NCBI GenBank assembly: GCA_030753015.1
Contig: JASMDC010000041.1
Span: 1 to 31,838, forward strand
Direction: 5' to 3'
DNA: 31,838 nt
Source of the DNA: Candidatus Undinarchaeales archaeon
GTDB lineage: Archaea > SpSt-1190 > JASMDC01
Below the pieces are notes generated by a model. It had not been told where the DNA came from. It was given only the letters and a program-made list of their open reading frames with translations, and did no database searches. Below are positions 5,875 through 19,371 of the stretch, one piece after another (position 1 is the stretch's first letter; every line of letters starts with the position of its first letter). Both the position numbers and the translations under genes were made by a program.

Positions 5875-6777
5875 GTGAAGGTGATGGAAGAACGGACCTA
5901 TACCATCCTCATCGTGGATGACGAAGTCGATATGCTGGACGCTCTCAAGCGTAAGCTGGAGCGGGCGCCGCAGTTCACATGCAAGATCGTCACGGCACAG
6001 AACCCCGAGGCAGCGATGGGCGAGCTCAAGAAGCAGCGGTTCGACATGGTGCTGTCCGACTACCAGATGCCGAAGATGAACGGCGTTGATCTCCTGGCGC
6101 TCGTCAAGGAGAACCATCCCGATACCAAACGGGTCCTCATCACCGGTCTGTCGGACATGGTCGTAGCACAGGACGCGATGAGGAAGGCCAAGGTGCATTT
6201 CTTCCTCGAGAAGCCCGTGGACAAGGACGTGCTGCGTGGCACGATCCACGAGCTGCTGAAGGCCTCCCGGGTCGAACCGACCTTGGATGATACCGGGGCG
6301 ACGCCAGCCACTGAGACACAGAGCACGATGGCGCCCGGGAACATGTACCTCATCGAGGAGAGGAAGGGCGCAAAGGCGTTCGAGGTGCTCACGGACCTGA
6401 TCGAGCGCGGTCATCAAGGGCTGGCCATCACGACACAATCCCCCGACATGATCAAGCAGCGGTACGGACTTGGGGGCACGTCCGTCAGATGGCTCAGCAA
6501 GCGCGAGGTCGACGGTGCTATGGACGCAAACAACCTCGTGGAGCTCGGCTTCCTCATCCGGGAGTTCCTCGAGCCCGCCGAGCGGGGCGTCGTGCTCCTG
6601 GACGGCTTCGACTATCTCACGAGCATCCACGGGTTCGACAAGACGATCAAGTTCCTCCAGGACCTCTCCGAATTCATCGTGTACAGCAATAAGAACGTCA
6701 TCATCCCGCTCAACCCACAGACCTTGAGTGCCCAGCAGTACGCGATCCTGGGAAGGTACCTCGAAAGCCTCGAGTGA
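5875..6777 (+). CDS. Response regulator receiver domain fused to DUF835 (degenerate KaiC-like ATPase)
   Basis: ILIVDDE, VLSDYQMPKMNG (phospho-acceptor Asp), ITG and EKP. The C-terminal half GNMYLIEE..GLAITT..VRWLS..VVLLDGFDYL..GFDKTIKFL..L.E fits DUF835. Start may be ATG 5884. Confidence 0.85.
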   Translation: MKVMEERTYTILIVDDEVDMLDALKRKLERAPQFTCKIVTAQNPEAAMGELKKQRFDMVLSDYQMPKMNGVDLLALVKENHPDTKRVLITGLSDMVVAQDAMRKAKVHFFLEKPVDKDVLRGTIHELLKASRVEPTLDDTGATPATETQSTMAPGNMYLIEERKGAKAFEVLTDLIERGHQGLAITTQSPDMIKQRYGLGGTSVRWLSKREVDGAMDANNLVELGFLIREFLEPAERGVVLLDGFDYLTSIHGFDKTIKFLQDLSEFIVYSNKNVIIPLNPQTLSAQQYAILGRYLESLE

Positions 6778-6864: not shown

Positions 6865-7560
6865 CTACTCCGTTGCCGTCCCGAGCTGGTACAGGACGAG
6901 GGACGAGAAGCCGATGAGTATGAAGCCCACGAAGAACGAGCCCCGGATGAAGAGCCAGATGCCCAGACCGATGCAAAGCAGCATGAACACCCGGCCGACG
7001 TTCACATTGATCTTCACGACCTTCATCTTCTTGAACGCGCTGGTGCTGCCCTCCATATCGACGTAGCAGTGGGGGACGTAGCTGCCCATGGGTGTCGTGT
7101 ATATCTTACCGAAGGAACTGTCCAGGATAAATGTCGCCCTTCTGCCCTTTACTTCTACCCATGCATGCGGTTCATGCTCGTAGTTACCGACGACGACCCG
7201 GACGCCCTTGATCCCAGCCTCTATCAGGAGGGAGGCCAGCAGGAGGGCCATATCCTCGCAGTCACCTTTCCCCGACGCAAGCGTCTCGCGCGGGTACTGC
7301 CAGTAGTCCTTCTTCCCGAAGTTGTCAAGGTCGCTCACGTAGGCGATGCGGCGGTTCACGTACATCATCGCCCGCCCGATGTCCGCCTTGAGAGATGTCC
7401 GCTCGGGAAGTGCCTCGTTTAAGATACCAGCGGTCTCGTGAGGCTTCAGGAACACCTCATAGGGGCAGTCGACACCGCCCCGGGTCGTGGTGAACGGGCT
7501 GTCCTTCGACATGGGCCCGTCAGTGTTCGACATCAAAGGTAATATTGACGGTCGTCCCAT
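6865..7560 (-). CDS. Transglutaminase-like cysteine protease (BTLCP/C93-like) with a C-terminal TM hairpin
   Basis: DYWQYPRETL..GKGDCEDMALLLASLL, HAWVEV and ILDS give a Cys-His-Asp triad. The ORF-track N-terminus (7908) overlaps the next gene; likely starts are 7560, 7533 or 7512. Confidence 0.8.
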   Translation of the reverse strand: MGRPSILPLMSNTDGPMSKDSPFTTTRGGVDCPYEVFLKPHETAGILNEALPERTSLKADIGRAMMYVNRRIAYVSDLDNFGKKDYWQYPRETLASGKGDCEDMALLLASLLIEAGIKGVRVVVGNYEHEPHAWVEVKGRRATFILDSSFGKIYTTPMGSYVPHCYVDMEGSTSAFKKMKVVKINVNVGRVFMLLCIGLGIWLFIRGSFFVGFILIGFSSLVLYQLGTATE

Positions 7561-7570
7561 CACCAAAGGC

Positions 7571-8065
7571 CTACTCGTAGGTGATCGTGCGCAGGCGGGT
7601 GCCGTCCTTGAGGACCTCGTCCTTGGTATACTCCTCGATCTCGGCCTTGAGGCTGATGATCCCGTGCATGACATCGCCGAAGCCCCGGAAGCTTCTGACC
7701 GGGTGCCACCAGTTGGCGATGATGGACGCGTCGGAGGGCATGCCGTAACCGTCCAGGCCAACTGACTCCACGAACTCCTTGATCTGGTCGTGGGTGCCCA
7801 TGAGATCGACCGTGTACCCGTCGGTCTCGCCCTCACCAGTGAGCCGACTCGCACCCCACTGGTGATGGTAGTGATCCACATCGATCTCGGCGCCGGACGC
7901 GGCGGCAAGGTCCTCGATGTACTCGCCGAACCCGCTCTCCTCGCTGCGCTGTGGGAAGTCCACGACCTGCCGGTAGTCGCCGTTGATCTCGCGGACGACG
8001 TGCACGATGTCGGAGTGGACGTCGTACGTGATGTGTGCGTAGTGGATCTCCTCGAGTCCTTCCAT
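7571..8065 (-). CDS. Hypothetical acidic protein
   Basis: Typical codon usage; GAGAGG before the ATG cluster 8074/8071/8065; TTATAT box near 8108-8113. Confidence 0.65.
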   Translation of the reverse strand: MEGLEEIHYAHITYDVHSDIVHVVREINGDYRQVVDFPQRSEESGFGEYIEDLAAASGAEIDVDHYHHQWGASRLTGEGETDGYTVDLMGTHDQIKEFVESVGLDGYGMPSDASIIANWWHPVRSFRGFGDVMHGIISLKAEIEEYTKDEVLKDGTRLRTITYE

Positions 8066-8319
8066 GATCATCATCCTCTCTGTCGTGGCCTGGTGCGGGG
8101 GGACCGGCATATAAGGATTCGCCCGCTCGCTGCAGGATTCCCTCCGGCCGTGGGACAAAATTCATCTGATCTCCTGCCAGAACATGTTTTGCCGCACAAG
8201 CGTACAGAGATTCCCGGTGTCCATTCTGTCCTCTCTTTTCGGGATGAGGTACATGGATGACGTCACCGAGCGCGTCGTCGACGAGCTTGATCGTCCCCCG
8301 AGCATCGTGGTAGCGGTCT

Positions 8320-8411
8320 ATCCTGAGACTGTTGATGGAGATGCCCGTGACACCTTGGAGGAGGTCCGGAAGGACTCTGAAGGCACAGGACCGTGAATCC
8401 GATCGGTATAC
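8320..8411 (-). repeat. Degenerate attC-like site A (distal end of the array)
   Basis: Contains ATCCTGAGACTGTTGATGGAG, GTCCGGAAGGACTCTGAAGGC and CCGTGAATCCGATC, which resemble sites F, E and B. The core reads GGTATAC instead of GTTATAC; the other arm is not recognisable. Confidence 0.55.
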
Positions 8412-8434
8412 GGAGAACGGCTGATGAAAATAGA

Positions 8435-8770
8435 TCACTCCTTGTTCTTATATCGGTATTTCTGATCGAAATAGGTTATGTCGACATATCCGGCATATAT
8501 CTTCGCTGAGTGTTTTACACCCTTTGGTATGTAATACCGGTCTCCTTTCTGATATGTCCTTTTCTTACCAGAGATCGTTAGATCGCCCTTCCCTTCCAAT
8601 ACAACACTCCATTGACCTTCGTGTGAATGCTCGGGAACTTCAACATCCTTTTCAAATTGCATGAAGATGATCTGGTGATTATCCCCTTGTGATAGATAGG
8701 CTTTGAGACCATCAAATGGGATATCGGCTTGTGGTAATGCCATGATTGGTGGTGGAAAAGGATCCGTCAT
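8435..8770 (-). CDS. Cupin domain protein (cassette 6)
   Basis: VPEHSHEGQWSVVLEG and GDRYYIPKGVKHSA cupin motifs; start set at ATG 8770. Confidence 0.9.
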   Translation of the reverse strand: MTDPFPPPIMALPQADIPFDGLKAYLSQGDNHQIIFMQFEKDVEVPEHSHEGQWSVVLEGKGDLTISGKKRTYQKGDRYYIPKGVKHSAKIYAGYVDITYFDQKYRYKNKE

Positions 8771-8817
8771 GATAAAAGCTAGCATCATATTGTTTTAAAG
8801 CAATAAGGCTGTCTTTC

Positions 8818-8947
8818 GCCTAGCGGCCAAGGACTCACCAGACGCGGCCTCGCCAAGCGATTCTCAAACGACGTTAGGGTCACCAGGGTTCAGAAGATCC
8901 AGGGCCGTGTTGGTAGAGGCCCGCAACCGTGAATCCGGTCGTTAAGT
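8818..8947 (-). repeat. attC-like site B (130 bp)
   Basis: On the + strand GCCTAGC-GGCCAA-GGACTCAC ... GTGAATCC-GGTC-GTTAAGT; the arms pair imperfectly. The left core has AGC instead of AAC. Confidence 0.8.
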
Positions 8948-8972
8948 GACGGCCTGTGATAAGTTCGGGTCA

Positions 8973-8988
8973 CCAAAAAGTATATAAA
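8973..8988 (+). promoter_or_regulatory. BRE/TATA promoter inside cassette 5
   Basis: CCAAAAAG-TATATAAA about 28 nt upstream of ATG 9016. Confidence 0.65.
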
Positions 8989-9015
8989 CGGGATATCATG
9001 CGGGGCCATATCATA

Positions 9016-9483
9016 ATGGAAATCGACGTTGCGAGTTATGATGAGCTTCTTAGTGACTCATTCTATCAATCCCTTGAATCATCATACATGAATGCCGATA
9101 AGCGTGTAATTGTAAAACTACCATATGATGAGAGAGCTCCAGAAAAAGAACAGGAAATTATTGATACTGTTCAGGAGCATTTCAAGCAGGAATATGATGA
9201 ACTGTCTACTTTTCTTGATCAAGAAACAAAGTGGGAGGCAACAAAGAGATATCTATCGCCAGTGGTGAAGTCCCGTTATCATCAATCTCTTGGCGCAGTG
9301 TCACTCTTATCTGCACTAGCATTGCCCTTTACCACTGCACTTGCTCCAATCACTCTATTAGCGGGCGGTGCATATGCGCTCAGTTATCTTGACACATACG
9401 CTAATTGTCAGATCGAGGATAGGAAGAGGGTAAATGCACGTAATGACCTTTCGGACCTTGAAATCGAGTTCTTCTACTCATAA
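9016..9483 (+). CDS. Hypothetical membrane protein (cassette 5, inverted relative to the array)
   Basis: AT-rich ORF filling the space between sites B and C; C-terminal hydrophobic hairpin LGAVSLLSALALPF...ITLLAGGAYAL; start moved to ATG 9016. Confidence 0.75.
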   Translation: MEIDVASYDELLSDSFYQSLESSYMNADKRVIVKLPYDERAPEKEQEIIDTVQEHFKQEYDELSTFLDQETKWEATKRYLSPVVKSRYHQSLGAVSLLSALALPFTTALAPITLLAGGAYALSYLDTYANCQIEDRKRVNARNDLSDLEIEFFYS

Positions 9484-9503
9484 GTAATAGCTCGTAGACC
9501 GTC

Positions 9504-9637
9504 GCTTAACGCAAAAGGGCTTCCGACGTGCCTCCACAAGAGAATCTTCAGCGAAGTTCAGGCCAGCTAGGTCCCAGCTACTGGAGGCGTGTTGGTGGAG
9601 CGTTGAAGGCGCGGAGGCGGAAAGCCGGCTGTTATGT
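9504..9637 (-). repeat. attC-like site C (134 bp)
   Basis: GCTTAAC-GCAAAA-GGGCTTCCG ... CGGAAAGCC-GGCT-GTTATGT; shares GCGTGTTGGTGGAG with the other sites. Confidence 0.85.
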
Positions 9638-9701
9638 ACAGTACTCCACGGCTTTTAGTATTCGATGTAGAAGCTGAGGGAAACAGGAAACCTTTTGAAG
9701 C

Positions 9702-10286
9702 ATGCAAACAACTCCCGATACCACGGTGGAGTCATTGACCAAGATCGAGATCACTGTAGAGAACATCGTCGCCTCCATCAACCTACATTGTAGGATACCA
9801 CTTGAAAGAGTGGCGGCATTGTCTGATAACGCCGAGTACAATCCCGAGCAGTTCCCGGGTCTCGTGTTTCGGATTCAGGAACCAAAGACGGCGAACCTGC
9901 TCTTCGGCACGGGTAAAGCGGTGTGCACGGGTGGAAAGAGTCTTGATGACGTGAAAGCGGCGGTCGGGAAGGTGAAGGAGAGCCTCGCTGGATTCAACGT
10001 GAAGTTTGAGGGTGAGCCAGATATCGAGGTCGTGAACCTGGTGGCTTCTGTGAAGACTGACCTCGAGCTCAACTTGGACAGGCTCGCATACAAGATGGAA
10101 GGAGTGGAGTATGAGCCAGAGCAGTTCCCCGGAATGGTATTCCGGACGGTGAAACCTAAGGCGGCCATCCTCATCTTCAGCACAGGCCGGTTCGTGGTGG
10201 CGGGAACGAGAAACATAGAGGACGCGCGGGTAGTATTTGATATGTTACTGGAAAAACTGCGGGATATAGGCGAAATAAATCCATAA
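9702..10286 (+). CDS. tbp: TATA-box-binding protein (cassette 4, inverted relative to the array)
   Basis: Two direct repeats: ENIVAS..EYNPEQFPGLVFR..PK..LLFGTGKAVCTG and VNLVAS..EYEPEQFPGMVFR..PK..LIFSTGRFVVAG. The true start may be TTG 9735 (GGTGGAG upstream; GAAACC-TTTTGAAG at 9687-9700). Confidence 0.97.
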   Translation: MQTTPDTTVESLTKIEITVENIVASINLHCRIPLERVAALSDNAEYNPEQFPGLVFRIQEPKTANLLFGTGKAVCTGGKSLDDVKAAVGKVKESLAGFNVKFEGEPDIEVVNLVASVKTDLELNLDRLAYKMEGVEYEPEQFPGMVFRTVKPKAAILIFSTGRFVVAGTRNIEDARVVFDMLLEKLRDIGEINP

Positions 10287-10390
10287 AAAGAAGATTCATC
10301 CCTTATACGTCAAAACAGGAAAAAGGAACCGATCCACCAGCATTGCCTTGAATCGACATGGTCAATGATGATCGTTGGTAGGGGCATTGC

Positions 10391-10540
10391 ATATAACGGA
10401 CAAGGCATTCCTTGATGCGGCCCCGCCTGGCGATTCTCGAGCGACGTTGGGATCACTATGGTCTCAGGATGATCGGAGCCGTGTTGGTGGAGGGCCGGAA
10501 GGGCTCTGACGGCCCGGACCCGGGAGGGCGAATGTTAGGC
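10391..10540 (-). repeat. attC-like site D (150 bp)
   Basis: ATATAAC-GGACAA-GGCATTCCTTG ... CGGGAGGGC-GAAT-GTTAGGC; inner hairpin GGGCCG-N12-CGGCCC; interior similar to site B (GCGATTCTC..CGACGTT.GG.TCAC). Confidence 0.85.
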
Positions 10541-10562
10541 GTCGTTTCACGAATGATGAGTT

Positions 10563-10811
10563 CTATTGTTCATCTTTGTGATAAAGGTCAAGGAAGATTA
10601 TCTTATCCTCGTTCTCATTATACATGTATGATAATCGATAAGGAGCGATATAGACTTCTCGCGTTCCTTTTCTTGAGAACCTCATCGGCTTTCCAATCGT
10701 GGGAGAATTCAAGATCTTCCTGATCTTCTTCTTGACCTTGGTCTTGATTAATTCATCCCTGATCCCCTTGACCTTCTTCTTGAAGAGAGGGTCATATGCT
10801 ACCGTTACCAT
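10563..10811 (-). CDS. relE: RelE/StbE-family toxin (cassette 3)
   Basis: 82 aa, very basic; FKKKVK..KILNSPTIGKPMR..RKGTREVYIAPYRLSY..IIFLDLYHKD; overlaps the antitoxin stop. Confidence 0.85.
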   Translation of the reverse strand: MVTVAYDPLFKKKVKGIRDELIKTKVKKKIRKILNSPTIGKPMRFSRKGTREVYIAPYRLSYMYNENEDKIIFLDLYHKDEQ

Positions 10812-11083
10812 TCTTCCAGTTCTTTCTCGAATTCTTCCTTGGTCATCTCCTTGAATTCTCCCGTCTCATATCGAGCTAGAGCTTCCTCGGTTCTCCGTGC
10901 AAATTCAAGATCCTCAGTGAACTGCTTCTCCATTTCCGAAGCTTTCTTCAGGATGAATTGAACTCCATTCTTGATAATGATCAGTTTATCTCCTTCATGC
11001 AGGTCTTCCCGCATTTCAGCGGGGATTACGACCTGTCCTTTGGAACTCATCTTCGTGATAGCAACATCCATGCGATTACCCAT
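10805..11083 (-). CDS. AbrB/MazE/SpoVT-family antitoxin (cassette 3)
   Basis: ITKMSSKGQVVIPAEMR..LHEGDKL with an acidic C-terminus; start may be ATG 11071. Confidence 0.9.
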   Translation of the reverse strand: MGNRMDVAITKMSSKGQVVIPAEMREDLHEGDKLIIIKNGVQFILKKASEMEKQFTEDLEFARRTEEALARYETGEFKEMTKEEFEKELEEW

Positions 11084-11115
11084 GTAAGACTAATCTTACT
11101 AAGTATAAATACTTT
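11084..11115 (-). promoter_or_regulatory. TATA promoter and palindromic operator of the AbrB-RelE pair
   Basis: Minus strand AAAG-TATTTATA, followed by the inverted repeat GTAAGA-N4-TCTTAC (11084-11099). Confidence 0.6.
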
Positions 11116-11144
11116 ATGGAAATCAGTCGTAATCGTGAAATGGC

Positions 11145-11292
11145 GTCTAACGGCAAAGGCCTTCTATCGCGCCTCCGTAACACGAATCTGTATCGAAGCT
11201 CAAACCAGCATAGCTCGAGGATCGACGGGGGCGTGTGGGCAGAGGGCCGGAAGGACTCTGACGGCCCGGAGCTAGAAGGTCGGGGGTTATAC
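11145..11292 (-). repeat. attC-like site E (148 bp)
   Basis: GTCTAAC-GGCAAA-GGCCTTCTA ... TAGAAGGTC-GGGG-GTTATAC; shares GAGGGCCGGAAGGRCTCTGACGGCCCGGA with site D. Confidence 0.9.
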
Positions 11293-11428
11293 GCAATAAA
11301 ATTTAGTTTTCTATCAATCCTGCAATAGCAGACCATATTGTAAGGGAATTATTTTTCATGTTTGCAGTGCTTTCGAGTTAGGTTTGCTATTATTTTATAT
11401 CAATAATTATTATTTTTAAGGTATATTA

Positions 11429-11797
11429 TTATTCGACATAGATAGTAAGCTCATCTGTTCCTACGGCACCATCATCATCTATTACTTTTAATTTAGCAGT
11501 GTATGTACCCGGTTTTTCAAATGTGTATGCATCCCTTCCACAGTTTTTACAGAATGTATCATACTTACCATCCCCATCTGCATCCCATTCATAAGAGACT
11601 ATATTGCCGTCGGGATCAGATGCTGATCCAGCAAAATTAAACTTTTCCCCGACAGATACATGAATATCTTCACCTGCAATAACATTTGGAGCTTTATTTG
11701 ATTGTACTTCCTTGCTTGTGCAACCTGTATTAAGGACCATCAAAAACGTAATAATAAGGATTCCTAAGGGGTAGTTATTTGATTTTATCTGTAACAC
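11429..11797 (-). CDS. PKD-domain lipoprotein (cassette 2)
   Basis: Hydrophobic leader ending NTGC; NKAPNVIAG..SDPDGNIVSYEWDADGDG..YTFEKPGTYTAKLKVIDDDGA. Strongly AT-rich; start codon uncertain. Confidence 0.85.
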   Translation of the reverse strand: MLQIKSNNYPLGILIITFLMVLNTGCTSKEVQSNKAPNVIAGEDIHVSVGEKFNFAGSASDPDGNIVSYEWDADGDGKYDTFCKNCGRDAYTFEKPGTYTAKLKVIDDDGAVGTDELTIYVE

Positions 11798-11894
11798 CTC
11801 ATTTAGATTATCACAGTAAAACTAATCCTAGATGATGTTTATAAAACTATCTGAAAAATGAAAAATGAGTTTTTTGAAAATTAAATTTTATGGT

Positions 11895-12030
11895 ACAGAA
11901 CGGTAGAGCCCCCCCCCGACGCGGCTCAGTATAGCGAATTTGTGCGAAGTTTAGACAATCGAGGCTCCAACAATCCTGAGCCGTGTTGGGTGACCGCGGG
12001 GGCGCGAACCCGGGAGGGTGGATGTTAGAC
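11895..12030 (-). repeat. attC-like site F (136 bp)
   Basis: ACAGAAC-GGTAGA-GCCCCCCCCCG ... CGGGAGGGT-GGAT-GTTAGAC; shares GACGCGGC and GAGCCGTGTTGG with the other sites. Confidence 0.85.
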
Positions 12031-12044
12031 GCAGTTCCAATTGA

Positions 12045-12350
12045 TCATAGTAAGAAAGAAAATTTCCTCTTTCCGTGAATGATCCTTCGGATTTCAATAA
12101 TCTGATCCTTGATCACGTAGAAGGCCAAATAATTATCAATAACAAGCATCCGATATCCGAGTAATCCGAGTCTATCATCTTTCGGGACCACTCCCAGTTC
12201 AGGGAAGGATTCCAACTTGAGAATGCTCTTGTCAATCTTGTTAACGAATTGTTCGGCCGCGGAGGGATTATCCAGGAAGATGTACTCGAAGATATTTAGA
12301 AGATCGTTCTGCGCGATAGGCAGATATTCGATCGTGAATTTCTTACGCAT
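12045..12350 (-). CDS. RelE/ParE-family toxin (cassette 1)
   Basis: AQNDLLNIFEYI..DNPSAA..LESFPELG..GYRMLVIDNYLAFY..IEIRRIIHGKR. Confidence 0.9.
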   Translation of the reverse strand: MRKKFTIEYLPIAQNDLLNIFEYIFLDNPSAAEQFVNKIDKSILKLESFPELGVVPKDDRLGLLGYRMLVIDNYLAFYVIKDQIIEIRRIIHGKRKFSFLL

Positions 12351-12609
12351 TCAATCTCTTCCTAAGAAGGGCCATCATTTCCTTATGAGTCTTTCTTCCT
12401 TCCTTTGAGGAGCTCTGTTCCTCAGCGATGCTGAGTTTCTGATAGAGTTCCAGTAATGCTTCATGTTCTTCATATCGAGCGAGGCTCATCACGACGAGAT
12501 CCCCCTTACCATTCTTGGTAATGTAGACGGGTTCTCCTTCTTTGTGACACAGCTCCGAGATCTCATTGAAATGATTGCGGAGATCGGATATCGGTTTGAT
12601 GATCACCAT
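12343..12609 (-). CDS. Phd/YefM-family antitoxin (cassette 1)
   Basis: IKPISDLRNHFNEISELCH..EPVYITKNGKGDLVVMSLARYE; overlaps the toxin start. Confidence 0.92.
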   Translation of the reverse strand: MVIIKPISDLRNHFNEISELCHKEGEPVYITKNGKGDLVVMSLARYEEHEALLELYQKLSIAEEQSSSKEGRKTHKEMMALLRKRLNA

Positions 12610-12639
12610 CTTGGATCATGTATTCTATGGAACTTGGAG

Positions 12640-12687
12640 TTTATATCTTTTATGATAATATTTTATCTCATAAATGATAATATTATC
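12640..12687 (-). promoter_or_regulatory. Promoter/operator of the Phd-RelE pair
   Basis: ATGATAATATT at 12652 and 12674 (22-bp spacing); perfect palindrome GATAATATTATC at 12676-12687; minus-strand AAAAG-ATATAAA. Confidence 0.55.
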
Positions 12688-12701
12688 GGAATTGGAATTG
12701 C

Positions 12702-12839
12702 GTCTAACTAGTGCATATCCGACATGCGGCATTACGTGTGTGCCCCTAAAGCCGAGTGATATCCGAAAGGGATGTCGTATACACCACCTCACGGGGAAGA
12801 TATTCGACATTCGGATACCATGTCGGGATGCTGTTATAT
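12702..12839 (-). other. Candidate attI site (alternatively a divergent attC)
   Basis: Minus strand ends ATGTCGGATATGCACTA-GTTAGAC. It lacks the attC-family interior and holds six variants of TATCCGACAT in both orientations. It is the site closest to the integrase. Confidence 0.6.
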
Positions 12840-12864
12840 CCGGAACCGACCTTTCTTCCTACCA

Positions 12865-13197
12865 TCACTGCCGTAGGACCTCGACGCACCGATCGATGAC
12901 CTTATTGACCGTCGAACGTGTGAGACGGCCTACCGTATACAGAACTGCCTTGCGATCAATGGTCATGAACTGGTTCGGGCGAACGTTGCTAGGCCTCTTG
13001 AGGGAGCCCGACTCAAAGTCCCCCTGGTCGATCTGTACGGCGTATCGGTCCCTCACAGACCGGCTCGTGACCTTGCATATGATGAGGTCGTCCCCGCCGC
13101 CGCTAGCGACTACAAGGGCTGGCCGTCGCTTACACCCAGAGAGGTCCGTGAAGATGACCGGGGCAACAATGACGTCACCCTTCACAAATCCTTCCAC
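12865..13197 (-). CDS. mazF: PemK/MazF-family toxin
   Basis: GTG 13197 after GGAGG; FVKGDVIVAP.IFTDLSGCKRRPALVV..DLIICKVTS..GSLKRPSNVRPNQFMTID. Confidence 0.9.
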   Translation of the reverse strand: MEGFVKGDVIVAPVIFTDLSGCKRRPALVVASGGGDDLIICKVTSRSVRDRYAVQIDQGDFESGSLKRPSNVRPNQFMTIDRKAVLYTVGRLTRSTVNKVIDRCVEVLRQ

Positions 13198-13475
13198 GCC
13201 TCGTCCTCCTCCGGCCCGTACCAGACATCCGTCATAGAGGACCGGATTGCTATGGTAAGGCACAAGACCTCCATCGCCTCATCGTCCAGCCCGAACCTCC
13301 TCTTGAGCTCTTCTAAGGTGGGGATGGCATTCTTCAGGGCAGCATCGTGATTCCTTGCGATGAGCACGAGCTTGCGGACGATCTCGTCATAGCTCTCGCT
13401 CCGGTGCTCGCGGAAGGCATCGAGCTCTTTCTTCGTGTTCTTGTGGAGCTTGATGGTTGTGACGTCGGTCGGCAT
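13182..13475 (-). CDS. Putative antitoxin: RHH-like N-terminus with a DUF2281-like W..PEEDEAWKDL tail
   Basis: ATG 13475, 97 aa; TTIKLHKNTKKELD..SESYDEIVRKL; the acidic tail overlaps the mazF start. The longer 256-aa ORF-track call is a spurious extension. Confidence 0.8.
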   Translation of the reverse strand: MPTDVTTIKLHKNTKKELDAFREHRSESYDEIVRKLVLIARNHDAALKNAIPTLEELKRRFGLDDEAMEVLCLTIAIRSSMTDVWYGPEEDEAWKDL

Positions 13476-13488
13476 GGTGGTACACCCG

Positions 13489-13525
13489 GGTATACCTAGG
13501 TATACCTCGGGATATAAACCTTCCG
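13489..13525 (-). promoter_or_regulatory. BRE/TATA and perfect 18-bp palindromic operator of the MazF pair
   Basis: Minus strand CGGAAGG-TTTATAT (13525-13512), then GGTATACCTAGGTATACC (13489-13506) just before ATG 13475. Confidence 0.7.
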
Positions 13526-13555
13526 CCTCGACACCCGTCCCGTACTCATCCACGC

Positions 13556-13933
13556 TCATACATCCTCCCCTCCTTCGAACCTGTCCAGCGGGCTGACGAT
13601 CCGCACCAGGTCCCGCCTCGTCACGTGAGTGTAGATCTGTGTCGTCCTGCAGCTCGCGTGGCCCAGGAGCTCCTGGATGTACCGCAGGTCCACACCGTCC
13701 TCGAGGAGGTGGGTGGCGAAGCTGTGACGCAGGCTGTGGACGGTCGCGCCCGGCCTGACCTCGGCCCTCCGCGCCGCCCGCCCGAACACGTGCTGGACGG
13801 TCCACACCCTCTCCTCCCAGAGCCACTCCCGGCCCGTCACGGTCCTGATCCTGCAGATGAGCTCTTGGTCGTAGGGTATGGACACCCCGATGGTGCCGTC
13901 CCCGCGTCCGTGCAGCCTTATCGTGCGTCCCAT
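13556..13933 (-). pseudogene. Integron-integrase-like tyrosine recombinase with a large in-frame internal deletion (125 aa)
   Basis: The C-terminal box II is intact: [44 protein letters not shown]. It is fused directly to an N-terminal segment ([28 protein letters not shown]). The core-binding domain and box I Arg are absent. Confidence 0.85.
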
Positions 13934-14132
13934 TGTTCGCACCACCAAGCACATACGCGGTCCGCGCCTAAATGCGCTTGCCCCTCCCCGCGGGGGGGAC
14001 CTGCGCCCGCACCCCGGCGGAGGAGTGCGTCCACCACGGCCGGTCATGCACACGTCCCGCATCGCTTATAAGGTCACAGCGGCTCTTAGTTCGTAAAGAG
14101 ATGGTCACCAACTACCGCAAGAGCGTGATACC

Positions 14133-14462
14133 ATGGCGATAATCGATCTGACATCCAAGAACTTCGAGCAGGTTGCACTGAAGAGCGAGGTCCCGGTGCT
14201 CATCGACTTCTGGGCAGATTGGTGCAAGCCGTGCAAAATGATGCATCCCGTGTTCGAGCAGCTGTCGGCCGAGTACGGTGAGAAGGTCAAGTTCGTCCGG
14301 GTGGACATCGACGAGGAGAATCAGCTGGCCATGCAGTACGGCATCCGCAGCATCCCCACCCTCCTCGCCATGCGCGAGGGCATGGTGGTGGGACAGTTCA
14401 TCGGCTTCGGTGACAAGGACGCGGTCATGGCGAAGCTGGACGTCGTCCTCTCGATCCGATAG
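14133..14462 (+). CDS. trxA: Thioredoxin
   Basis: PVLIDFWADWCKPCKM..FVRVDIDE..YGIRSIPTL. Confidence 0.95.
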   Translation: MAIIDLTSKNFEQVALKSEVPVLIDFWADWCKPCKMMHPVFEQLSAEYGEKVKFVRVDIDEENQLAMQYGIRSIPTLLAMREGMVVGQFIGFGDKDAVMAKLDVVLSIR

Positions 14463-14874: not shown

Positions 14875-17800
14875 TTACAGTGGCAGGGAGGTGCACTCGC
14901 AGGCACAGAAGCGCTTGGACATCGTGCATCGCTCCCGGTCCACCCGCAGCTCGCACCCCACCAGACAGTCTGCGCAGTAGATGCTCACGCTGCACGGGTC
15001 CTGGGACACGGTCGTGTAGATGTCCGTCCGCTCGCCCTCGGTAGCGGTCGGGTCCAGCACCCCCAGCGCCGCGTACACAAATACGTTGGACGGGACCAGG
15101 GCGTCGGTCCACACCGTCCCGTCCTGGTGCTCGGCGACCACCCACAGGCGGTAGCTCTCGCCCATGGTCGTCGGGAACATCTGGCCGGTAAGCTCGGACG
15201 TGTCGCCGCGGCCCAGGGCCACCGTGCGCCGCTCCTCGCTCCCGCCCACCACAAGGCCTTCCTTGCTTACGGCACGGACGAGCACCGTGCCCACAAAGGA
15301 CTTGGGGACCGTGTTGCGCACCGTCAGCGTGGCCCGCGCCTCGCCGGCGGTGTACATCTCGTCCAGAGGGTTGTTGGCAGCGTCGGTGAAGGCGGCTTCC
15401 GTGATCTCGAGCTCAAGGGGCCTTACCTCCAGGCTGGCGTCCGGGTAGCCTAGGCGGACCCGGGCCCGTTCGCCCTCGCACCACGTGTTCATCACACGGC
15501 CCTTGCACCGGCTGGTTGCGTACCCCTGGCCGGGGAGCACCTGGCGCTCGACCACCGCACCGTCCGCGTCGCGCACCTCCACGCCGATGGAGAACACCGC
15601 GTTGGCCATCTCTGCGCTCAGAACCAGCTCCTCGGTCGCGATCCCGAGCTCCTGTACCGGCCCGGTGACCTCGTGGACCCTGGCCGATCCCTCCACCACC
15701 CTGTTCTGCGCGTCGGCGAGGAACACCTCGACCGTCACCGGGTAGGTGTGTGCCGTCACGGCCACCGCACCTGTGACCTGCTCGCCGGTGTAGCCCTCGG
15801 AGGTCCTTTCCCCGTCGCGGAGGAAGTAGGCGTCGGCCACGGTGAGCATGTCGGGCACCACCATGAACGAGATGGGACCGCGCGCGTCGAGCACCACCTC
15901 GCCCCCGGCGCGGCGCAGGACAGCGCCCGGCTGGACCGCCGTCACCGTCAGGTCGCCGTTGAGGGCGATCTCGCCTGTGAGCGCCCGGTAGTCGGCGCCC
16001 GGTGGGAGCACGATGCTCGAGAGGGAGCCTGCGAACCGCCGGTCCTCGGTGCACGAGCACGGGCACACGAAGCCCTTGGGGCACTCCGGGCAGGAGCAGG
16101 AGGGCAGGAGATGTAGGGAGAGGTCGGCAGCACCCGCAAAGCTGCGGAACCCGGAGTTGCGCACCTCCAGCGAGAGGCGGACACGCTCGCCGTGGTAGAA
16201 GGTCCGCTGCTCGGCCAGTCCCCGGAGGATGGCCAATCGGACGTCGACGCGGGGCATGGACAGCTTGCACTCGCGCAGGCAGCTTTCGGCGTCGTCCCCG
16301 TTCAGGCACCCGCGCTGGCAGGTCACCAGGGACGGCGGCACGCTCTCGCCCGCACCGTCCTCGTCCATCCTTCCGTCGCCGTCGTTGTCCCGGCCGTCGA
16401 CGGGGTCCTCGTCGACACGGTCGTCACCGTCCTCGTCGGCGCCGTTACCGCACTTGCGCAGGCACGGTCCCGGGTCGGGGAACACGCCGCACTCCAGCTC
16501 GCAGGACACGTCCATCTCCACGCACGCACTAGTGCACGCGGACACCTGGTCGATCGCCACGAGCGCCTGGCACATCTCGTTGCACGTGCCCAGGCTTCCG
16601 CAGTCCGTGGCGTCCAGGGCGCACGAGCCTCCGCAGCATACGCCCACTGCGCTGGTGCAGGCCTCGCCGTCACCGCTCCCGGCACAGCCCACGTCGGAGC
16701 CGGTGTCGCAGCCCGAGGCGCCGGCCACGCACGAGCCGCCGCAGCACTTCCCTTCGCTGGCGCCCAACACGCAGCTATCGCCGTCCCGGTCCGCGCACCC
16801 CACTGCCGATGAGCAGGTACCCACGCACGCGATGCGTGCGTCCTCATCGCCGGGATGGACCAGAGCGCACATGGGACCGCATTCCAGAGTGCAGCTGTCA
16901 TCGGCCCGTTCCTCCGCCTCGAGCCCGCCTGGCAGGCAGCACAGGTAACCCGACTCGTCTCCGCAGATGTCGAAGGTCAGCCCCGGCACGTCCGGTCCCG
17001 AGCATGAGCCCCCCTCGCCTAGTGTAGGGGGGACCGCAGCGATGCCGCCGAGGTCGTCGAGGCAGCAGGCGATGATGCGCTTGGCGTCCTCCTCGACGAT
17101 GGGCCCGGTGCAGGAGTAGGTGGTCGTCGTCCGTGTGCCGTCCGGATTGTGGCACACGCACATGCCCAGGTGGCGCTGGCAGTGGCCCACCTCGGCGCCG
17201 CACTCCTCGCGACAGATGCGGGAGCAGCCCGCCTCCGAGCGCGACGCGTACTCGAAGCACTCCTCGGCCGAGATGAACATGTCCTCCGCCTCGATGGCGG
17301 CCAGCGCCTGGACGGCTTGCTGTTGGCGCGCGGACCACTCGTCGGTGTTGCCGTCGGTGATGTCGCCCTCTCCCGGGCCGCACCGGTCCGCGAGCATGAG
17401 CCCGGGGTATACGTGGCCTAGGGTGGACACGTCCTCGACCGTGGCCGATGTCCGCAGCATCCGGATGAGGTCGGCGAGCATGGCCTTGAACTCCTCAGCG
17501 TCGGTGTCGGTGTCAGGATCGCGGGACATCTCGATAAGGATGTCGGACAGGCGCTCCACCAGGGGGACGGCGTCGTACGGGGGCTCCTCGCCGCTGAGCG
17601 AGATCTCGGTGAGCTCGGTGTCGACCAGGGCGCTGATCGTGGTACGTAGGTCGGGGTAGGTGGCCAGGAAGTGGTCCACGAAGCTACGCAGGACCGTCAC
17701 CTTCTCTGCTACGAGCGCGGGACCGTGGGTGGCCTCGTCGCCCAGGAGCGTGCCCGAGCCGTCGAGGGTGCACACGTCCTTGACGTCGACGACGCGCTGG

Positions 17801-19371
17801 TAGGAGGTGGAGTAGTAGGTCCGCCGTTGGGCGGGGCTGGGGAGGTGGCACTCCTCGGGGACCATGGACGTCGCCACGGTCTCCTCGTCCCACGGTGCGA
17901 CATCGCAGGCATCGCTCAGGTCCACGTCCTCCAACGCGGGGTTCTGGAACGTACCCAGGGTGCCCAGGGCCACAGCACAGTGGTCCTTCTGCTGATCGAG
18001 GGCGTCCTCGAGCGCTTCCAGGTGGGCTGCGAGCACCTCGTACAGGTCGCGGAGGTTGTCGAGCGTGGTGAGCACATCGGTGCGGAAGTCGACCGTGTTG
18101 TCGAACCAGCCCTCGGGACAGGCGATCAGCCCCGTGTCGAGCACGCTCAACGGTGTCGGGTCCGTATCGGTGTGGGTCCAGTCGACCGTCGGCGAGTAGT
18201 CGTGGACCTCGCCCGCCTCGCCCTCCGCCCGCTCGCGGCAGAACCGGTCGCCGATGGCCTGACCACCGTCGTCCACCTTCACGGGTTCGGGCCGACCGCT
18301 GCCCTTCAGCAGGCCGTACACGGTGGACCGGAACGCAGGCTCGCAAAGGTTCTTCTGGAACTCTCCGGCGGCGTTGGCGGTACCGGCCTGGTCGTTGCCC
18401 GCAAGCGCCACGATGTACCGTCCGCCCTGCTCCTCGAAGGCCACGATGAAGGGCGCGTCGTACCGCAGGGCCAGCTCGCCCGCGGTGAAGTCCAGCTCCT
18501 CGCTGCCCACGTACACCTTGTTGGCGGCCTGGTCGTACCGCACCCGCATCCCGTCCTCCACGCCGTCGAGCACCGAGTTGGACGTGCTCGAGCCCAGGAG
18601 CACGAGGTTGCCGCCGGGGACCGCGCCTGTGTGCTCGACCACCGCCATACCGAGCTCGGCGCCCAGCACGAGGGCCTTGGCCCGGTCATGGCTCCCTACC
18701 CCGGAGCCGTACACGACCGTGCCATCGCCGCCTGTGCACTTCCCGTCGCTGCAGCCCTCGTAGCACGGGTAAGCGTCGCCGTTCACGACCAGCGGCACAA
18801 GACCGTCGTTGGACCTGATCGACGCGTCGTACTGGCGGACGTTGTCGGGGGAGAACAATCGGTCGTACGCGTCACAGTAGCGCTCGTGGTCGGGCTCGAT
18901 GCATCCCTCGGGGAGAGGGCCTGAGGGACCGGAGGGACCGCCGGGGCCTCCCGGACCACCGGGACCGCCCGGACCGGGTGTCGGGGTCACCGCTCCAACG
19001 GGCACGGTGACGGAGATATAGGTACGACAGCCGGGGCCCATGTCGTAGGCGCCGCAGTCGACCCGGCCCTGGCACCGCAGTGAGTAGGTGCCCTCCACGT
19101 CGTAGGTGACGTCCACGACGCTGTTCCACGCGTCGCCCCAGATGAACTGGCCCGAGGAGTAGTCATCGATGTACATGTCGATGTGGTTCTCCTGGGAGTC
19201 GGTCCCGGTGCACTTCACCGTGACGGGCGCCTCAGCGCTGGCGGCAGCGACGCTCCCGTCGTTGGAGGATGAGTGGATCTGGGCACCGTTGACGAACACG
19301 TTCACCGTGGGCCGGGCCAGCGCAAGGGCCAGCGCGAGCACGCACAGGACCGCGAGCATCCTCGACCTCAT
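14875..19371 (-). CDS. Giant secreted Cys-rich protein C (1498 aa): signal peptide, Pro/Gly linker, S-layer-like domain, helical scaffold, Cys repeats, DxDGD Ca-binding motifs, Ig-like domains, 8-Cys C-terminus
   Basis: ATG 19371 overlaps the upstream stop as ATGA; leader MRSRMLAVLCVLALALALA; shares KDVCTLDGSG, ITDGNTD.W, WCEG..YP.A.LEV and the terminal Cys motif with genes A and B. Confidence 0.92.
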   Translation of the reverse strand: MRSRMLAVLCVLALALALARPTVNVFVNGAQIHSSSNDGSVAAASAEAPVTVKCTGTDSQENHIDMYIDDYSSGQFIWGDAWNSVVDVTYDVEGTYSLRCQGRVDCGAYDMGPGCRTYISVTVPVGAVTPTPGPGGPGGPGGPGGPSGPSGPLPEGCIEPDHERYCDAYDRLFSPDNVRQYDASIRSNDGLVPLVVNGDAYPCYEGCSDGKCTGGDGTVVYGSGVGSHDRAKALVLGAELGMAVVEHTGAVPGGNLVLLGSSTSNSVLDGVEDGMRVRYDQAANKVYVGSEELDFTAGELALRYDAPFIVAFEEQGGRYIVALAGNDQAGTANAAGEFQKNLCEPAFRSTVYGLLKGSGRPEPVKVDDGGQAIGDRFCRERAEGEAGEVHDYSPTVDWTHTDTDPTPLSVLDTGLIACPEGWFDNTVDFRTDVLTTLDNLRDLYEVLAAHLEALEDALDQQKDHCAVALGTLGTFQNPALEDVDLSDACDVAPWDEETVATSMVPEECHLPSPAQRRTYYSTSYQRVVDVKDVCTLDGSGTLLGDEATHGPALVAEKVTVLRSFVDHFLATYPDLRTTISALVDTELTEISLSGEEPPYDAVPLVERLSDILIEMSRDPDTDTDAEEFKAMLADLIRMLRTSATVEDVSTLGHVYPGLMLADRCGPGEGDITDGNTDEWSARQQQAVQALAAIEAEDMFISAEECFEYASRSEAGCSRICREECGAEVGHCQRHLGMCVCHNPDGTRTTTTYSCTGPIVEEDAKRIIACCLDDLGGIAAVPPTLGEGGSCSGPDVPGLTFDICGDESGYLCCLPGGLEAEERADDSCTLECGPMCALVHPGDEDARIACVGTCSSAVGCADRDGDSCVLGASEGKCCGGSCVAGASGCDTGSDVGCAGSGDGEACTSAVGVCCGGSCALDATDCGSLGTCNEMCQALVAIDQVSACTSACVEMDVSCELECGVFPDPGPCLRKCGNGADEDGDDRVDEDPVDGRDNDGDGRMDEDGAGESVPPSLVTCQRGCLNGDDAESCLRECKLSMPRVDVRLAILRGLAEQRTFYHGERVRLSLEVRNSGFRSFAGAADLSLHLLPSCSCPECPKGFVCPCSCTEDRRFAGSLSSIVLPPGADYRALTGEIALNGDLTVTAVQPGAVLRRAGGEVVLDARGPISFMVVPDMLTVADAYFLRDGERTSEGYTGEQVTGAVAVTAHTYPVTVEVFLADAQNRVVEGSARVHEVTGPVQELGIATEELVLSAEMANAVFSIGVEVRDADGAVVERQVLPGQGYATSRCKGRVMNTWCEGERARVRLGYPDASLEVRPLELEITEAAFTDAANNPLDEMYTAGEARATLTVRNTVPKSFVGTVLVRAVSKEGLVVGGSEERRTVALGRGDTSELTGQMFPTTMGESYRLWVVAEHQDGTVWTDALVPSNVFVYAALGVLDPTATEGERTDIYTTVSQDPCSVSIYCADCLVGCELRVDRERCTMSKRFCACECTSLPL

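Follow-up and report, generated by a model that had tools for sequence, protein, structure and literature searches.

Integrons have been reported from 75 metagenome-assembled genomes (MAGs) of archaea, mostly as clusters of attC sites lacking integron integrases (CALINs), together with six integron integrases (IntIs) carrying the IntI-specific domain, according to Ghaly et al. 2022 (PMC9668308). A first-pass annotation of the DNA analysed here, the 31,838-nt archaeal contig JASMDC010000041.1 (hereafter the window), proposed an archaeal integron at positions 8320-13933, taking such elements to be known mainly from a few MAGs and co-oriented intI genes to be a minority among bacterial integrons; that source counts 75 MAGs, not 'a few', and for Archaea co-orientation is not unusual, attI being placed there immediately downstream of intI. 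The locus resembles archaeal integrons and CALINs, which often hold toxin-antitoxin and signal-peptide cassettes and whose recombinase gene faces the array, with attI downstream of intI, and it differs from them in lacking the IntI-specific domain and in the toxin-antitoxin pair and F-type palindrome placed between the recombinase and the array (PMC9668308). We interpret it as probably a sedentary integron-type cassette array in the chromosome of a marine archaeon, in which cassettes would be recombined through a folded strand and the neighbouring tyrosine recombinase family would provide the cognate enzyme; for the array part alone our confidence is high.

The repeats of the Vibrio arrays (VCRs) are about 129 nt long. 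The present array is like them in its many homologous long sites of about 130 nt, its cassettes mostly of unknown function, its toxin-antitoxin cassettes and its stability, whereas it differs from them in a 5x3 internal loop, an unbulged L box, an enzyme without the IntI-specific domain (I2) and an archaeal host. On VCR bottom strands IntI reads two extrahelical bases, namely T12'' and G20'', and canonical bottom strands carry two such bases on the same arm, usually as T-N6-G, as summarised in PMC3053210. The aadA1 attC site of R100 consists of R'' GTCTAAC, a spacer of 5 nt, an L'' of 8 nt (one extra base), an L' of 7 nt, a spacer of 6 nt and R' GTTAGAT. The sites described here share with it the AAC/GTT core triplets, the R and L boxes and unequal spacers (6/5 there, 6/4 here), the longer one lying on the same arm if the plus strand is the bottom strand; unlike it (60 nt, one extra G in L''), they are 131-157 nt long, form a three-way junction, have a mostly bulge-free L box and carry A/T at core positions 3 and 5.

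The window is the entire 31.8-kb contig C53 of a genome of 3.85 Mb, 117 contigs and 60% GC (G000), which was compared with a congeneric sister species (G001), the only other species of the genus compared, and with further genomes including G017 from another archaeal class. Since G000 holds four TATA-box-binding protein (TBP) loci, and matches to this family among the control genomes were restricted to archaeal ones, the host is an archaeon; no small-subunit rRNA was found in the G000 assembly.

Fold, strand and flanks of the attC-like sites

A covariance model (R1) was built from 21 G000 copies of the site, and a scan of the 31838-base window with filters off retrieved five sites (A-E), all on the plus strand, with E values of 1e-27 to 1e-31, the next best match in the window having an E value of 0.27. 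Sites A-E are 136-156 nt long, homologous and alignable from end to end, and the mean column identity among the genome copies (131-157 nt) is 64%. No Rfam family was found for the window sites or for the compact sites of the other archaeal class described below. Six sites and a remnant had been listed in the first-pass annotation. While A-E were recovered with R1 scores of 108.6-124.5 bits, the sixth (F) falls outside their family, and the remnant at 8320-8411 was missed by R1 and is recognised by local similarity only, through 23-28-nt matches (D5 and D10) of 79-100% identity; it also aligns with the complete site that adjoins the same cupin cassette in G001.

In the alignment of the 21 genome copies, 20 of which were scorable per core, the left core reads RNATAAC and the right core GTTATRY. 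AAC is kept in 18/20 copies and GTT in 18/20, and at up to two mismatches 18/20 copies agree with RYYYAAC and 18/20 with GTTRRRY, as the first-pass annotation had claimed, with systematic A/T at core positions 3 and 5, where the canonical cores have Y and R. The shared fold (21 copies, 32 pairs) comprises an R box of TAACG/NGTTA, a 5x3 internal loop, an L box of 8-10 bp and two hairpins on a three-way junction. Paired cells amounted to 90.7%, compared to 79.8 ± 0.9% in column shuffles (0/500 reached the observed value) and 37-43% with slid partners, and compensatory two-sided change was observed in 17/32 pairs, compared to 10.7 ± 1.8 in shuffles, including 7/8 pairs of the L box. The sites thus have the inverse RYYYAAC/GTTRRRY cores of attC, as well as an imperfect palindrome whose R and L boxes are kept by compensatory change. 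A 6/4 spacer asymmetry, previously assigned to B-F, is displayed by all of A-E, in which it is made up of the 5x3 loop and one closing G.T or G:C pair; F has spacers of 4 and 1 nt. The two surplus loop bases on the 5' arm of the plus strand are the sole asymmetry of the sites, the L box being mostly unbulged in mini-hairpin folds of 19 copies (both arms were present in 20/21 copies, one lacking the stem).

RNAalifold analysis of the five window sites gave -32.4 kcal/mol on the plus strand and -24.6 on the minus strand. Over 32 pairs and 21 copies, 102 G.T cells were counted on the plus strand against 14 A.C cells; three near-fixed G.T columns supply 48 of the 102, and without them the counts are 54 against 14. 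The plus strand is therefore the strand with the conserved fold, and folding on both strands, which the first-pass annotation had suggested as a check, bore out attC-like hairpins with a better fold on plus, in agreement with its report of G:T-rich mismatches on that strand. F does not follow this pattern: its fold has a z score of -2.6 on plus and -4.0 on minus, R1 does not match it, and it belongs to a separate family of F and F' elements, not to the A-E family.

In integrons the crossover falls inside the R' core, so that the outer parts of the R box are divided between adjacent sites. The 16 nt past GTTA of each site were compared with the 16 nt ahead of TAAC of the next one. Watson-Crick pairs out of 16 numbered 11 for A-B, 8 for B-C, 12 for C-D, 12 for D-E and 14 for E-F, compared to 5-7 for a site's own two flanks, and the left flank of F is complementary to the right flank of site E over 19 nt (95%, I4). 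Over 11 junctions on six contigs the mean for neighbours was 8.8, while that for own flanks was 5.1 (n=19) and that for 370 other pairs 4.8 ± 2.0; at least 11 pairs were reached by 5/11 junctions and by 0.5% of the other pairs. A two-site mini-array of the other archaeal class, with its sites 1 kb apart, also has flanks that are complementary across the pair (GTTATACGCC / GGCGTATAAC). Pairing between neighbouring flanks is the cassette signature of integrons and the behaviour of attC flanks, and its swapped arrangement is explained if circular cassettes are cut and rejoined within the TAAC/GTTA core. Because a site's own flanks pair no better than those of unrelated sites, the sites do not behave as a unit of the miniature inverted-repeat transposable element (MITE) or repetitive extragenic palindrome (REP) type, moving on its own inverted ends. 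If the sites are taken as attC, the five of them, 686-887 nt apart, form a CALIN, a term that requires two or more attC spaced by <4 kb and no neighbouring IntI.

Cassettes and their distribution

The features of the locus are as follows, in window coordinates.

8320-8411, plus: degenerate terminal site at the host-side end; 3' half only (second hairpin, L and R arms), core GGTATAC instead of GTTATAC
8435-8788, minus: cassette gene, cupin, 117 aa; Cupin_2 E 4.6e-11; 83% nt copy in a different G001 array
8815-8950, plus: attC-like site A; R1 108.6 bits
8956-9483, plus: cassette gene, familyless, 175 aa, from the open reading frame (ORF) list; no match in Pfam or NCBIfam
9501-9640, plus: attC-like site B; R1 109.2 bits
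9702-10286, plus: cassette gene, TATA-box-binding protein, 194 aa; TBP E 1.6e-53
10388-10543, plus: attC-like site C; R1 124.5 bits
10563-11083, minus: cassette, ParE-family toxin (10563-10811) and MazE/AbrB-type antitoxin (10805-11083), by Pfam; 83% nt to G001 C8:976-1532, in another array
11142-11295, plus: attC-like site D; R1 118.9 bits
11429-11797, minus: cassette gene, PKD-domain protein with hydrophobic N-terminus, 122 aa; PKD_4 E 8.4e-16
11892-12033, plus: attC-like site E; R1 109.8 bits
12045-12609, minus: cassette, ParE toxin (12045-12350) and Phd/YefM antitoxin (12343-12609); Pfam E 4.4e-17 and 7.3e-13
12699-12842, plus: F element, heading the array; an imperfect palindrome distinct from sites A-E that has TAAC and GTTA cores of its own; may be the equivalent of attI or the first attC
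12865-13478, minus: toxin-antitoxin pair between F and the recombinase, PemK/MazF (12865-13263) and DUF7557 (13182-13478), by Pfam; 80% nt beside the intact G001 recombinase
13479-13555, minus: spacer after the recombinase stop with GGTTTATATCC (13511-13520); conserved in G001
13556-13933, minus: remnant recombinase gene, 125 aa; N-terminal domain fused without frameshift to the catalytic domain's final 80 residues

The array holds six cassettes of one or two genes, or seven if the MazF pair is counted, and four of the six as well as the recombinase lie on the minus strand by the ORF list and Pfam, as first annotated. Toxin-antitoxin pairs and proteins of unknown function make the cassette content typical of chromosomal integrons. 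The region forms an island of 0.40-0.53 GC (about 8.4-12.9 kb) between a left flank of 0.58-0.60 and a right flank of 0.62-0.70, and a 23-nt motif (D1) occurs five times inside it at spacings of 682-892 nt.

Searches with nhmmer and R1 gave about 27-30 site copies on nine G000 contigs, with further arrays on C82, C87, C26, C23, C115 and C24 and single copies as well (e.g. C29 and C70). In G001, six copies were found by genome search and 8-9 by direct search of the loci, and R1 sites were absent from 38 of the 41 genomes of the first set, that is, all but G000, G001 and G017. Among the cassettes of the other arrays are nucleotidyltransferase, RHH, ParE and DUF7557 modules, along with a second cupin, a MerR/GyrI-like regulator and numerous familyless proteins.

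The cupin, ParE/MazE and DUF7557 cassettes are present in G001 at 83-86% nt identity, and ParE/Phd at 75%, in different arrays and orders. The window cupin cassette is located in a G001 array beside the host gene that flanks the C23 array of G000, while the window ParE/MazE cassette and the DUF7557 cassette of C26 stand together in a G001 array beside the host gene flanking the C82 array. The left and right flanks of the window map to two different G001 contigs, both array-free. Gene content between the repeats, whose invariance among relatives the first-pass annotation had regarded as evidence against an integron, is therefore variable, with the same cassettes residing in other G001 arrays.

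The TBP cassette encodes a protein 74% identical to two TBPs on contigs of host GC, and a second copy (88% nt) lies at C44:311-998. This copy starts exactly at a GTTATGT core and is preceded by a mini-palindrome, GCATAAC-CCACT-GTTATGTGC, in place of a full site. It is followed by an element of about 360 nt with perfect 20-nt terminal inverted repeats (C44 998-1017 / 1337-1356).

In a search of DNA runs, part of the array occurred in marine or seawater metagenomes, in 20 run rows that come from 11 studies, and contig pieces identical to the window were found in four runs of four studies; the array is stable in nature. No joint removing a cassette was detected in contigs of four public marine runs aligned over 7800-14300, although assembled contigs drop rare variants and such contigs are uninformative on excision. 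A single joint appeared in them, on a contig of X13 that steps back by 47 nt at 13741/13695. Six loose-end strings were also checked, of which four correspond to paralogous copies in G000 (C27, C31 twice and C87) and two were not found.

Outside the island, an ordinary host-side flank encodes a response-regulator receiver fused to DUF835 (5875-6777) and, adjoining it, a transglutaminase-like protein (6865-7908). Positions 8241-8298, left of the degenerate terminal site, are repeated at the start of C27 (about 210-300), and contigs from other sequencing runs diverge at 8298 into the C27 copy. On the other side, past thioredoxin and TrmB/MarR-like genes that flank the island, lies a very GC-rich ORF of 1505 aa (14875-19392, minus strand); its N-terminus is signal-like, and it contains Gly-Pro repeats together with numerous Cys-rich stretches.

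Recombinase and array head

The match of the 125-aa ORF to Pfam Phage_integrase is confined to positions 109-169 of the 172-position profile. The closest full-length relative is P0001 (354 aa), which G001 encodes intact at the corresponding locus and which is 92% identical over the shared parts; by comparison with it, 229 aa (687 nt) were deleted in frame between GGACCGT and GGACGGT, so that the core-binding domain, the first catalytic Arg and the Lys are gone. Members of the family consist of an N-terminal domain of about 50 aa (PYD...IRTVTGR.W...K.WTVP, outside Pfam), followed by SAM_4 and the catalytic domain. P0001 scored 237 bits against TIGR02249, the integron integrase profile (cut-off 265), in two stretches skipping profile positions 169-240, and it is without 31+10 residues of R100 IntI1, exactly at the IntI1-specific insertion. 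Its best solved relative is VchIntIA (2a3v) with 151 bits, in two stretches skipping residues 170-238, followed by XerA structures with 140 bits. While the intact orthologue is like the chromosome-dimer resolvases XerA and XerCD in fold and catalytic motifs, the family is unlike them in the extra N-terminal domain, four copies in one genome (two in tandem), where XerA is a single-copy housekeeping enzyme, a patchy distribution, the slightly better match to VchIntIA and a position at the head of an array.

The four G000 copies are the window remnant and three full-length genes, one of which, on C76, contains a TAG stop. The other two are tandem paralogues on the same strand at C31:23-2514, 65% and 51% identical to P0001. 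C31 ends 22 nt past the stop of the first paralogue, and C26 starts with sites oriented as if C31 joins C26. The family was found in 1/16 other genomes of the phylum. A scan of genome contigs with P0001 returned nearly exclusively generic Firmicutes Xer genes and one close locus (L036, 55% identity, <1 kb downstream), and a scan of metagenome contigs with the N-terminal domain returned three short contigs (1.5-5 kb) without usable downstream DNA. In the second archaeal class recombinase copies are frequently broken.

Downstream of the intact G001 gene, the same spacer and the DUF7557/MazF pair (80% nt) are followed by an extra toxin-antitoxin pair and an F-like element at the contig end. The extra pair, which is RelE-like (L014 12803-13254), has an 86% nt counterpart at C73:52499-53068 in G000, near which no sites were found by the models. 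On C76 the order is recombinase, antitoxin/RelE-like pair and F' element; F' also occurs on C11 and on C17 of G001, where it follows two sites, and an F-like element together with a MazF fragment closes the C23 array. F and F' start on the array side with a common TAAC-TAGTGCATAT(C/G)CGA. The order of recombinase, toxin-antitoxin pair, F or F' and array was thus observed in the window, at the end of G001 C14 and on C76, and F or F', recurrent at 5-6 loci, always occupies the same array end relative to site orientation. The other array end adjoins host genes; the site there is complete on C23 and halved in the window and on C26. It follows from this fixed polarity, in which recombinase, toxin-antitoxin pair, F, repeated units of cassette and site and host DNA succeed one another, that the window array reads on minus, and from this reading direction that the better-folding plus strand is the 'bottom' strand. 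The first-pass annotation, which had made plus the folding bottom strand of an array read on minus, is thereby upheld by fold energies, G.T excess and recombinase-headed polarity.

Two measures were considered as further markers of direction and set aside: ORF orientation is undecisive at 11 against 7, and the distance from stop codon to site is short on whichever side the gene ends. Candidates for attI are the F element and GGTTTATATCC, 36 nt after the recombinase stop and conserved in G001, and the latter may serve the toxin-antitoxin pair as its promoter TATA box or else represent a simple site of attI type. A gapped complement of 8 nt, shared by the post-stop spacer and F's right flank, was our own reading by eye, not a tool computation; it has little weight as a mark of attI, since it coincides with the probable TATA box and the G001 F-like site does not preserve it.

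In the first set of 41 genomes, a recombinase matching from its N-terminus was found in G000, G001 and G017, the same three that hold R1 sites. Among 38 genomes of the class of G017, four have the N-terminal domain, six have R1 sites and three have both. When the 78 genomes were pooled, R1 sites occurred in 5/6 genomes with an N-terminal-domain recombinase and in 3/72 without (Fisher p = 1.5e-5), and in 4/5 against 2/52 after collapse to genera (p = 1.8e-4). Sites of the other class are compact (88-100 nt): they share R box, loop, L box and second hairpin with the sites described above but have a short first hairpin, and their L boxes covary; they were found in 6/38 genomes at 1-2 copies each (L124, L168-L175), for example at 1501-1588 and 2525-2618 of L173 (G017:C22). 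The unpaired stretches GGCGGAG and CGGAGCC are conserved across the two classes. The recurrent architecture and this co-occurrence link the family of the neighbouring gene to the sites, and we give even chances to the claim that it acts on them as the cognate enzyme.

In the proposed mechanism, a tyrosine recombinase would act on the folded plus ('bottom') strand to excise and insert cassettes. The array would be read on minus from its head (recombinase, MazF pair and F; 12699-13933) to the decayed last site at the host junction (8320-8411). The cognate enzyme would be a recombinase that is IntI-like, is extended by an N-terminal domain of about 50 aa and lacks I2, which in canonical IntI holds the extrahelical bases; such an enzyme would suit sites without L-box bulges, a coherent pairing that we infer. 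With the window gene dead, the array would be frozen or might be served in trans by the C31 paralogues.

Competing explanations and implications

Several observations weigh against an integron-type array with this recombinase as its enzyme. At the sites themselves, two extrahelical bases on the R''-L'' arm (typically T-N6-G), as expected of attC, were not seen, and the geometry conflicts with the canonical one, the surplus bases lying on the 5' arm of the plus strand, whereas canonical bottom strands have extrahelical bases on the 3' arm. Through the cassettes shared between G000 and G001, site bodies could not be assigned to the left or right cassette, similarity being diffuse (76-88%), and cassette ORFs are only weakly co-oriented, 11 with the proposed direction and 7 opposed to it in our own tally of mechanical ORF lists. 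Concerning the enzyme, the window gene is dead, and the functional recombinase gene expected next to an integron array is therefore not found beside this one. The family is also devoid of the IntI-specific I2 domain (patch III region), and no protein of G000 or G001, both 99% complete, scored above the TIGR02249 cut-off (0/2 genomes). P0001 scored 232 bits against XerA_Arch of NCBIfam (NF040815; cut-off 220), so that the grouping with XerA, which the first-pass annotation had named as evidence against its own proposal, was indeed obtained by profile score. From its 'archaeal integron' the attC-like cassette array is retained and the integrase is not, given the absence of I2, 237 bits against 265 and the 229 lost residues. 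Broken relatives are common, comprising the C76 gene with its TAG, G067 with a frameshift, G074 with a frameshift and a deletion and the truncated G051, and to our knowledge no activity on folded DNA has been described for an I2-less enzyme scoring as XerA_Arch. In G017 the recombinase and R1 sites are on separate contigs, with no array downstream of the gene. The co-occurrence statistics were obtained from related genomes that are not independent, and from a second set picked because G017 had both features; excluding G017, R1 sites were found in 2/3 against 3/34 (p = 0.04, our own arithmetic).

One rival is an ordinary CALIN, in which the sites are true attC, a canonical IntI has been lost, was not assembled or is foreign, and the recombinase, toxin-antitoxin pair and F form an unrelated module, an integrative element or Xer-type system, lying beside arrays or targeting them. 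It would account for a recombinase without the IntI-specific domain that exceeds the XerA_Arch cut-off and for the unlinked gene and sites of G017. Moreover, most archaeal integrons are CALINs and bacterial IntI1 recombines archaeal attC, according to PMC9668308, and bacterial elements that insert specifically into attC are known in the group IIC-attC introns, as described in PMC3001079. However, no IntI exceeds its cut-off in the two 99%-complete genomes, the head architecture recurs at several loci of two genomes, two archaeal classes have the recombinase together with the site family, and the bulged bases read by canonical IntI are missing from the sites. We consider this explanation rather unlikely, with some weight remaining on it.

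Selfish MITE- or REP-like elements spread between genes, with the 'cassettes' being chance intervening genes, would fit about 27-30 dispersed copies, some of them solitary (C29, C70), their inverted TAAC...GTTA ends and a copy conservation that is high for attC (64% mean column identity). We hold this to be very unlikely, since transposition of a unit would not yield flanks that are complementary between neighbours and not within a site, and since the intervening genes form a low-GC island, recur as units elsewhere in the sister species and stand in arrays of fixed polarity toward F and the recombinase. A structured RNA transcribed from the plus strand, for instance a small RNA, terminator, insulator or processing signal, is suggested by the strong one-strand excess of G.U-compatible pairs, the conserved three-way junction and the unpaired GGCGGAG and CGGAGCC kept across two classes. 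It would leave swapped flank complementarity and cassette shuffling unexplained, it has no Rfam match, and the plus strand is antisense to 4/6 cassettes; that the sites are such RNAs and not DNA recombination sites seems extremely unlikely. The integron-type cassette array with folded-strand recombination is our preferred explanation.

A further step would be to regard the system as a separate integron lineage, defined by an IntI-like recombinase that has an additional N-terminal domain and in which I2 was never present or has been lost, bulge-free three-way-junction sites, an entry platform of toxin-antitoxin pair and F type, occurrence in at least two archaeal classes and host-type cassettes (TBP). 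We put this forward tentatively, as a possibility that we doubt at present. I2 is taken as the domain that defines integron integrases, holding the bulged bases of attC and forcing replicative resolution, according to PMC4792948. Literature searches on archaeal integrons, attC and XerA returned no title or abstract start dealing with arrays served by an I2-less recombinase, which is not proof of absence. If the recombinase is unrelated to the sites, the finding is an ordinary archaeal CALIN. If the I2-less relative is their only partner and the sites lack those bulges, it would be a testable candidate for cassette recombination before or without I2, and a separate lineage, if true, would mark a step in integron evolution that preceded I2 or else an independent way of recombining cassettes as single strands. 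With TBP as a cassette, core-type genes of Archaea are seen to enter the pool of cassettes. If the I2-less relative is the only partner of the sites, surveys that demand the IntI-specific domain would overlook a class of archaeal integrons.

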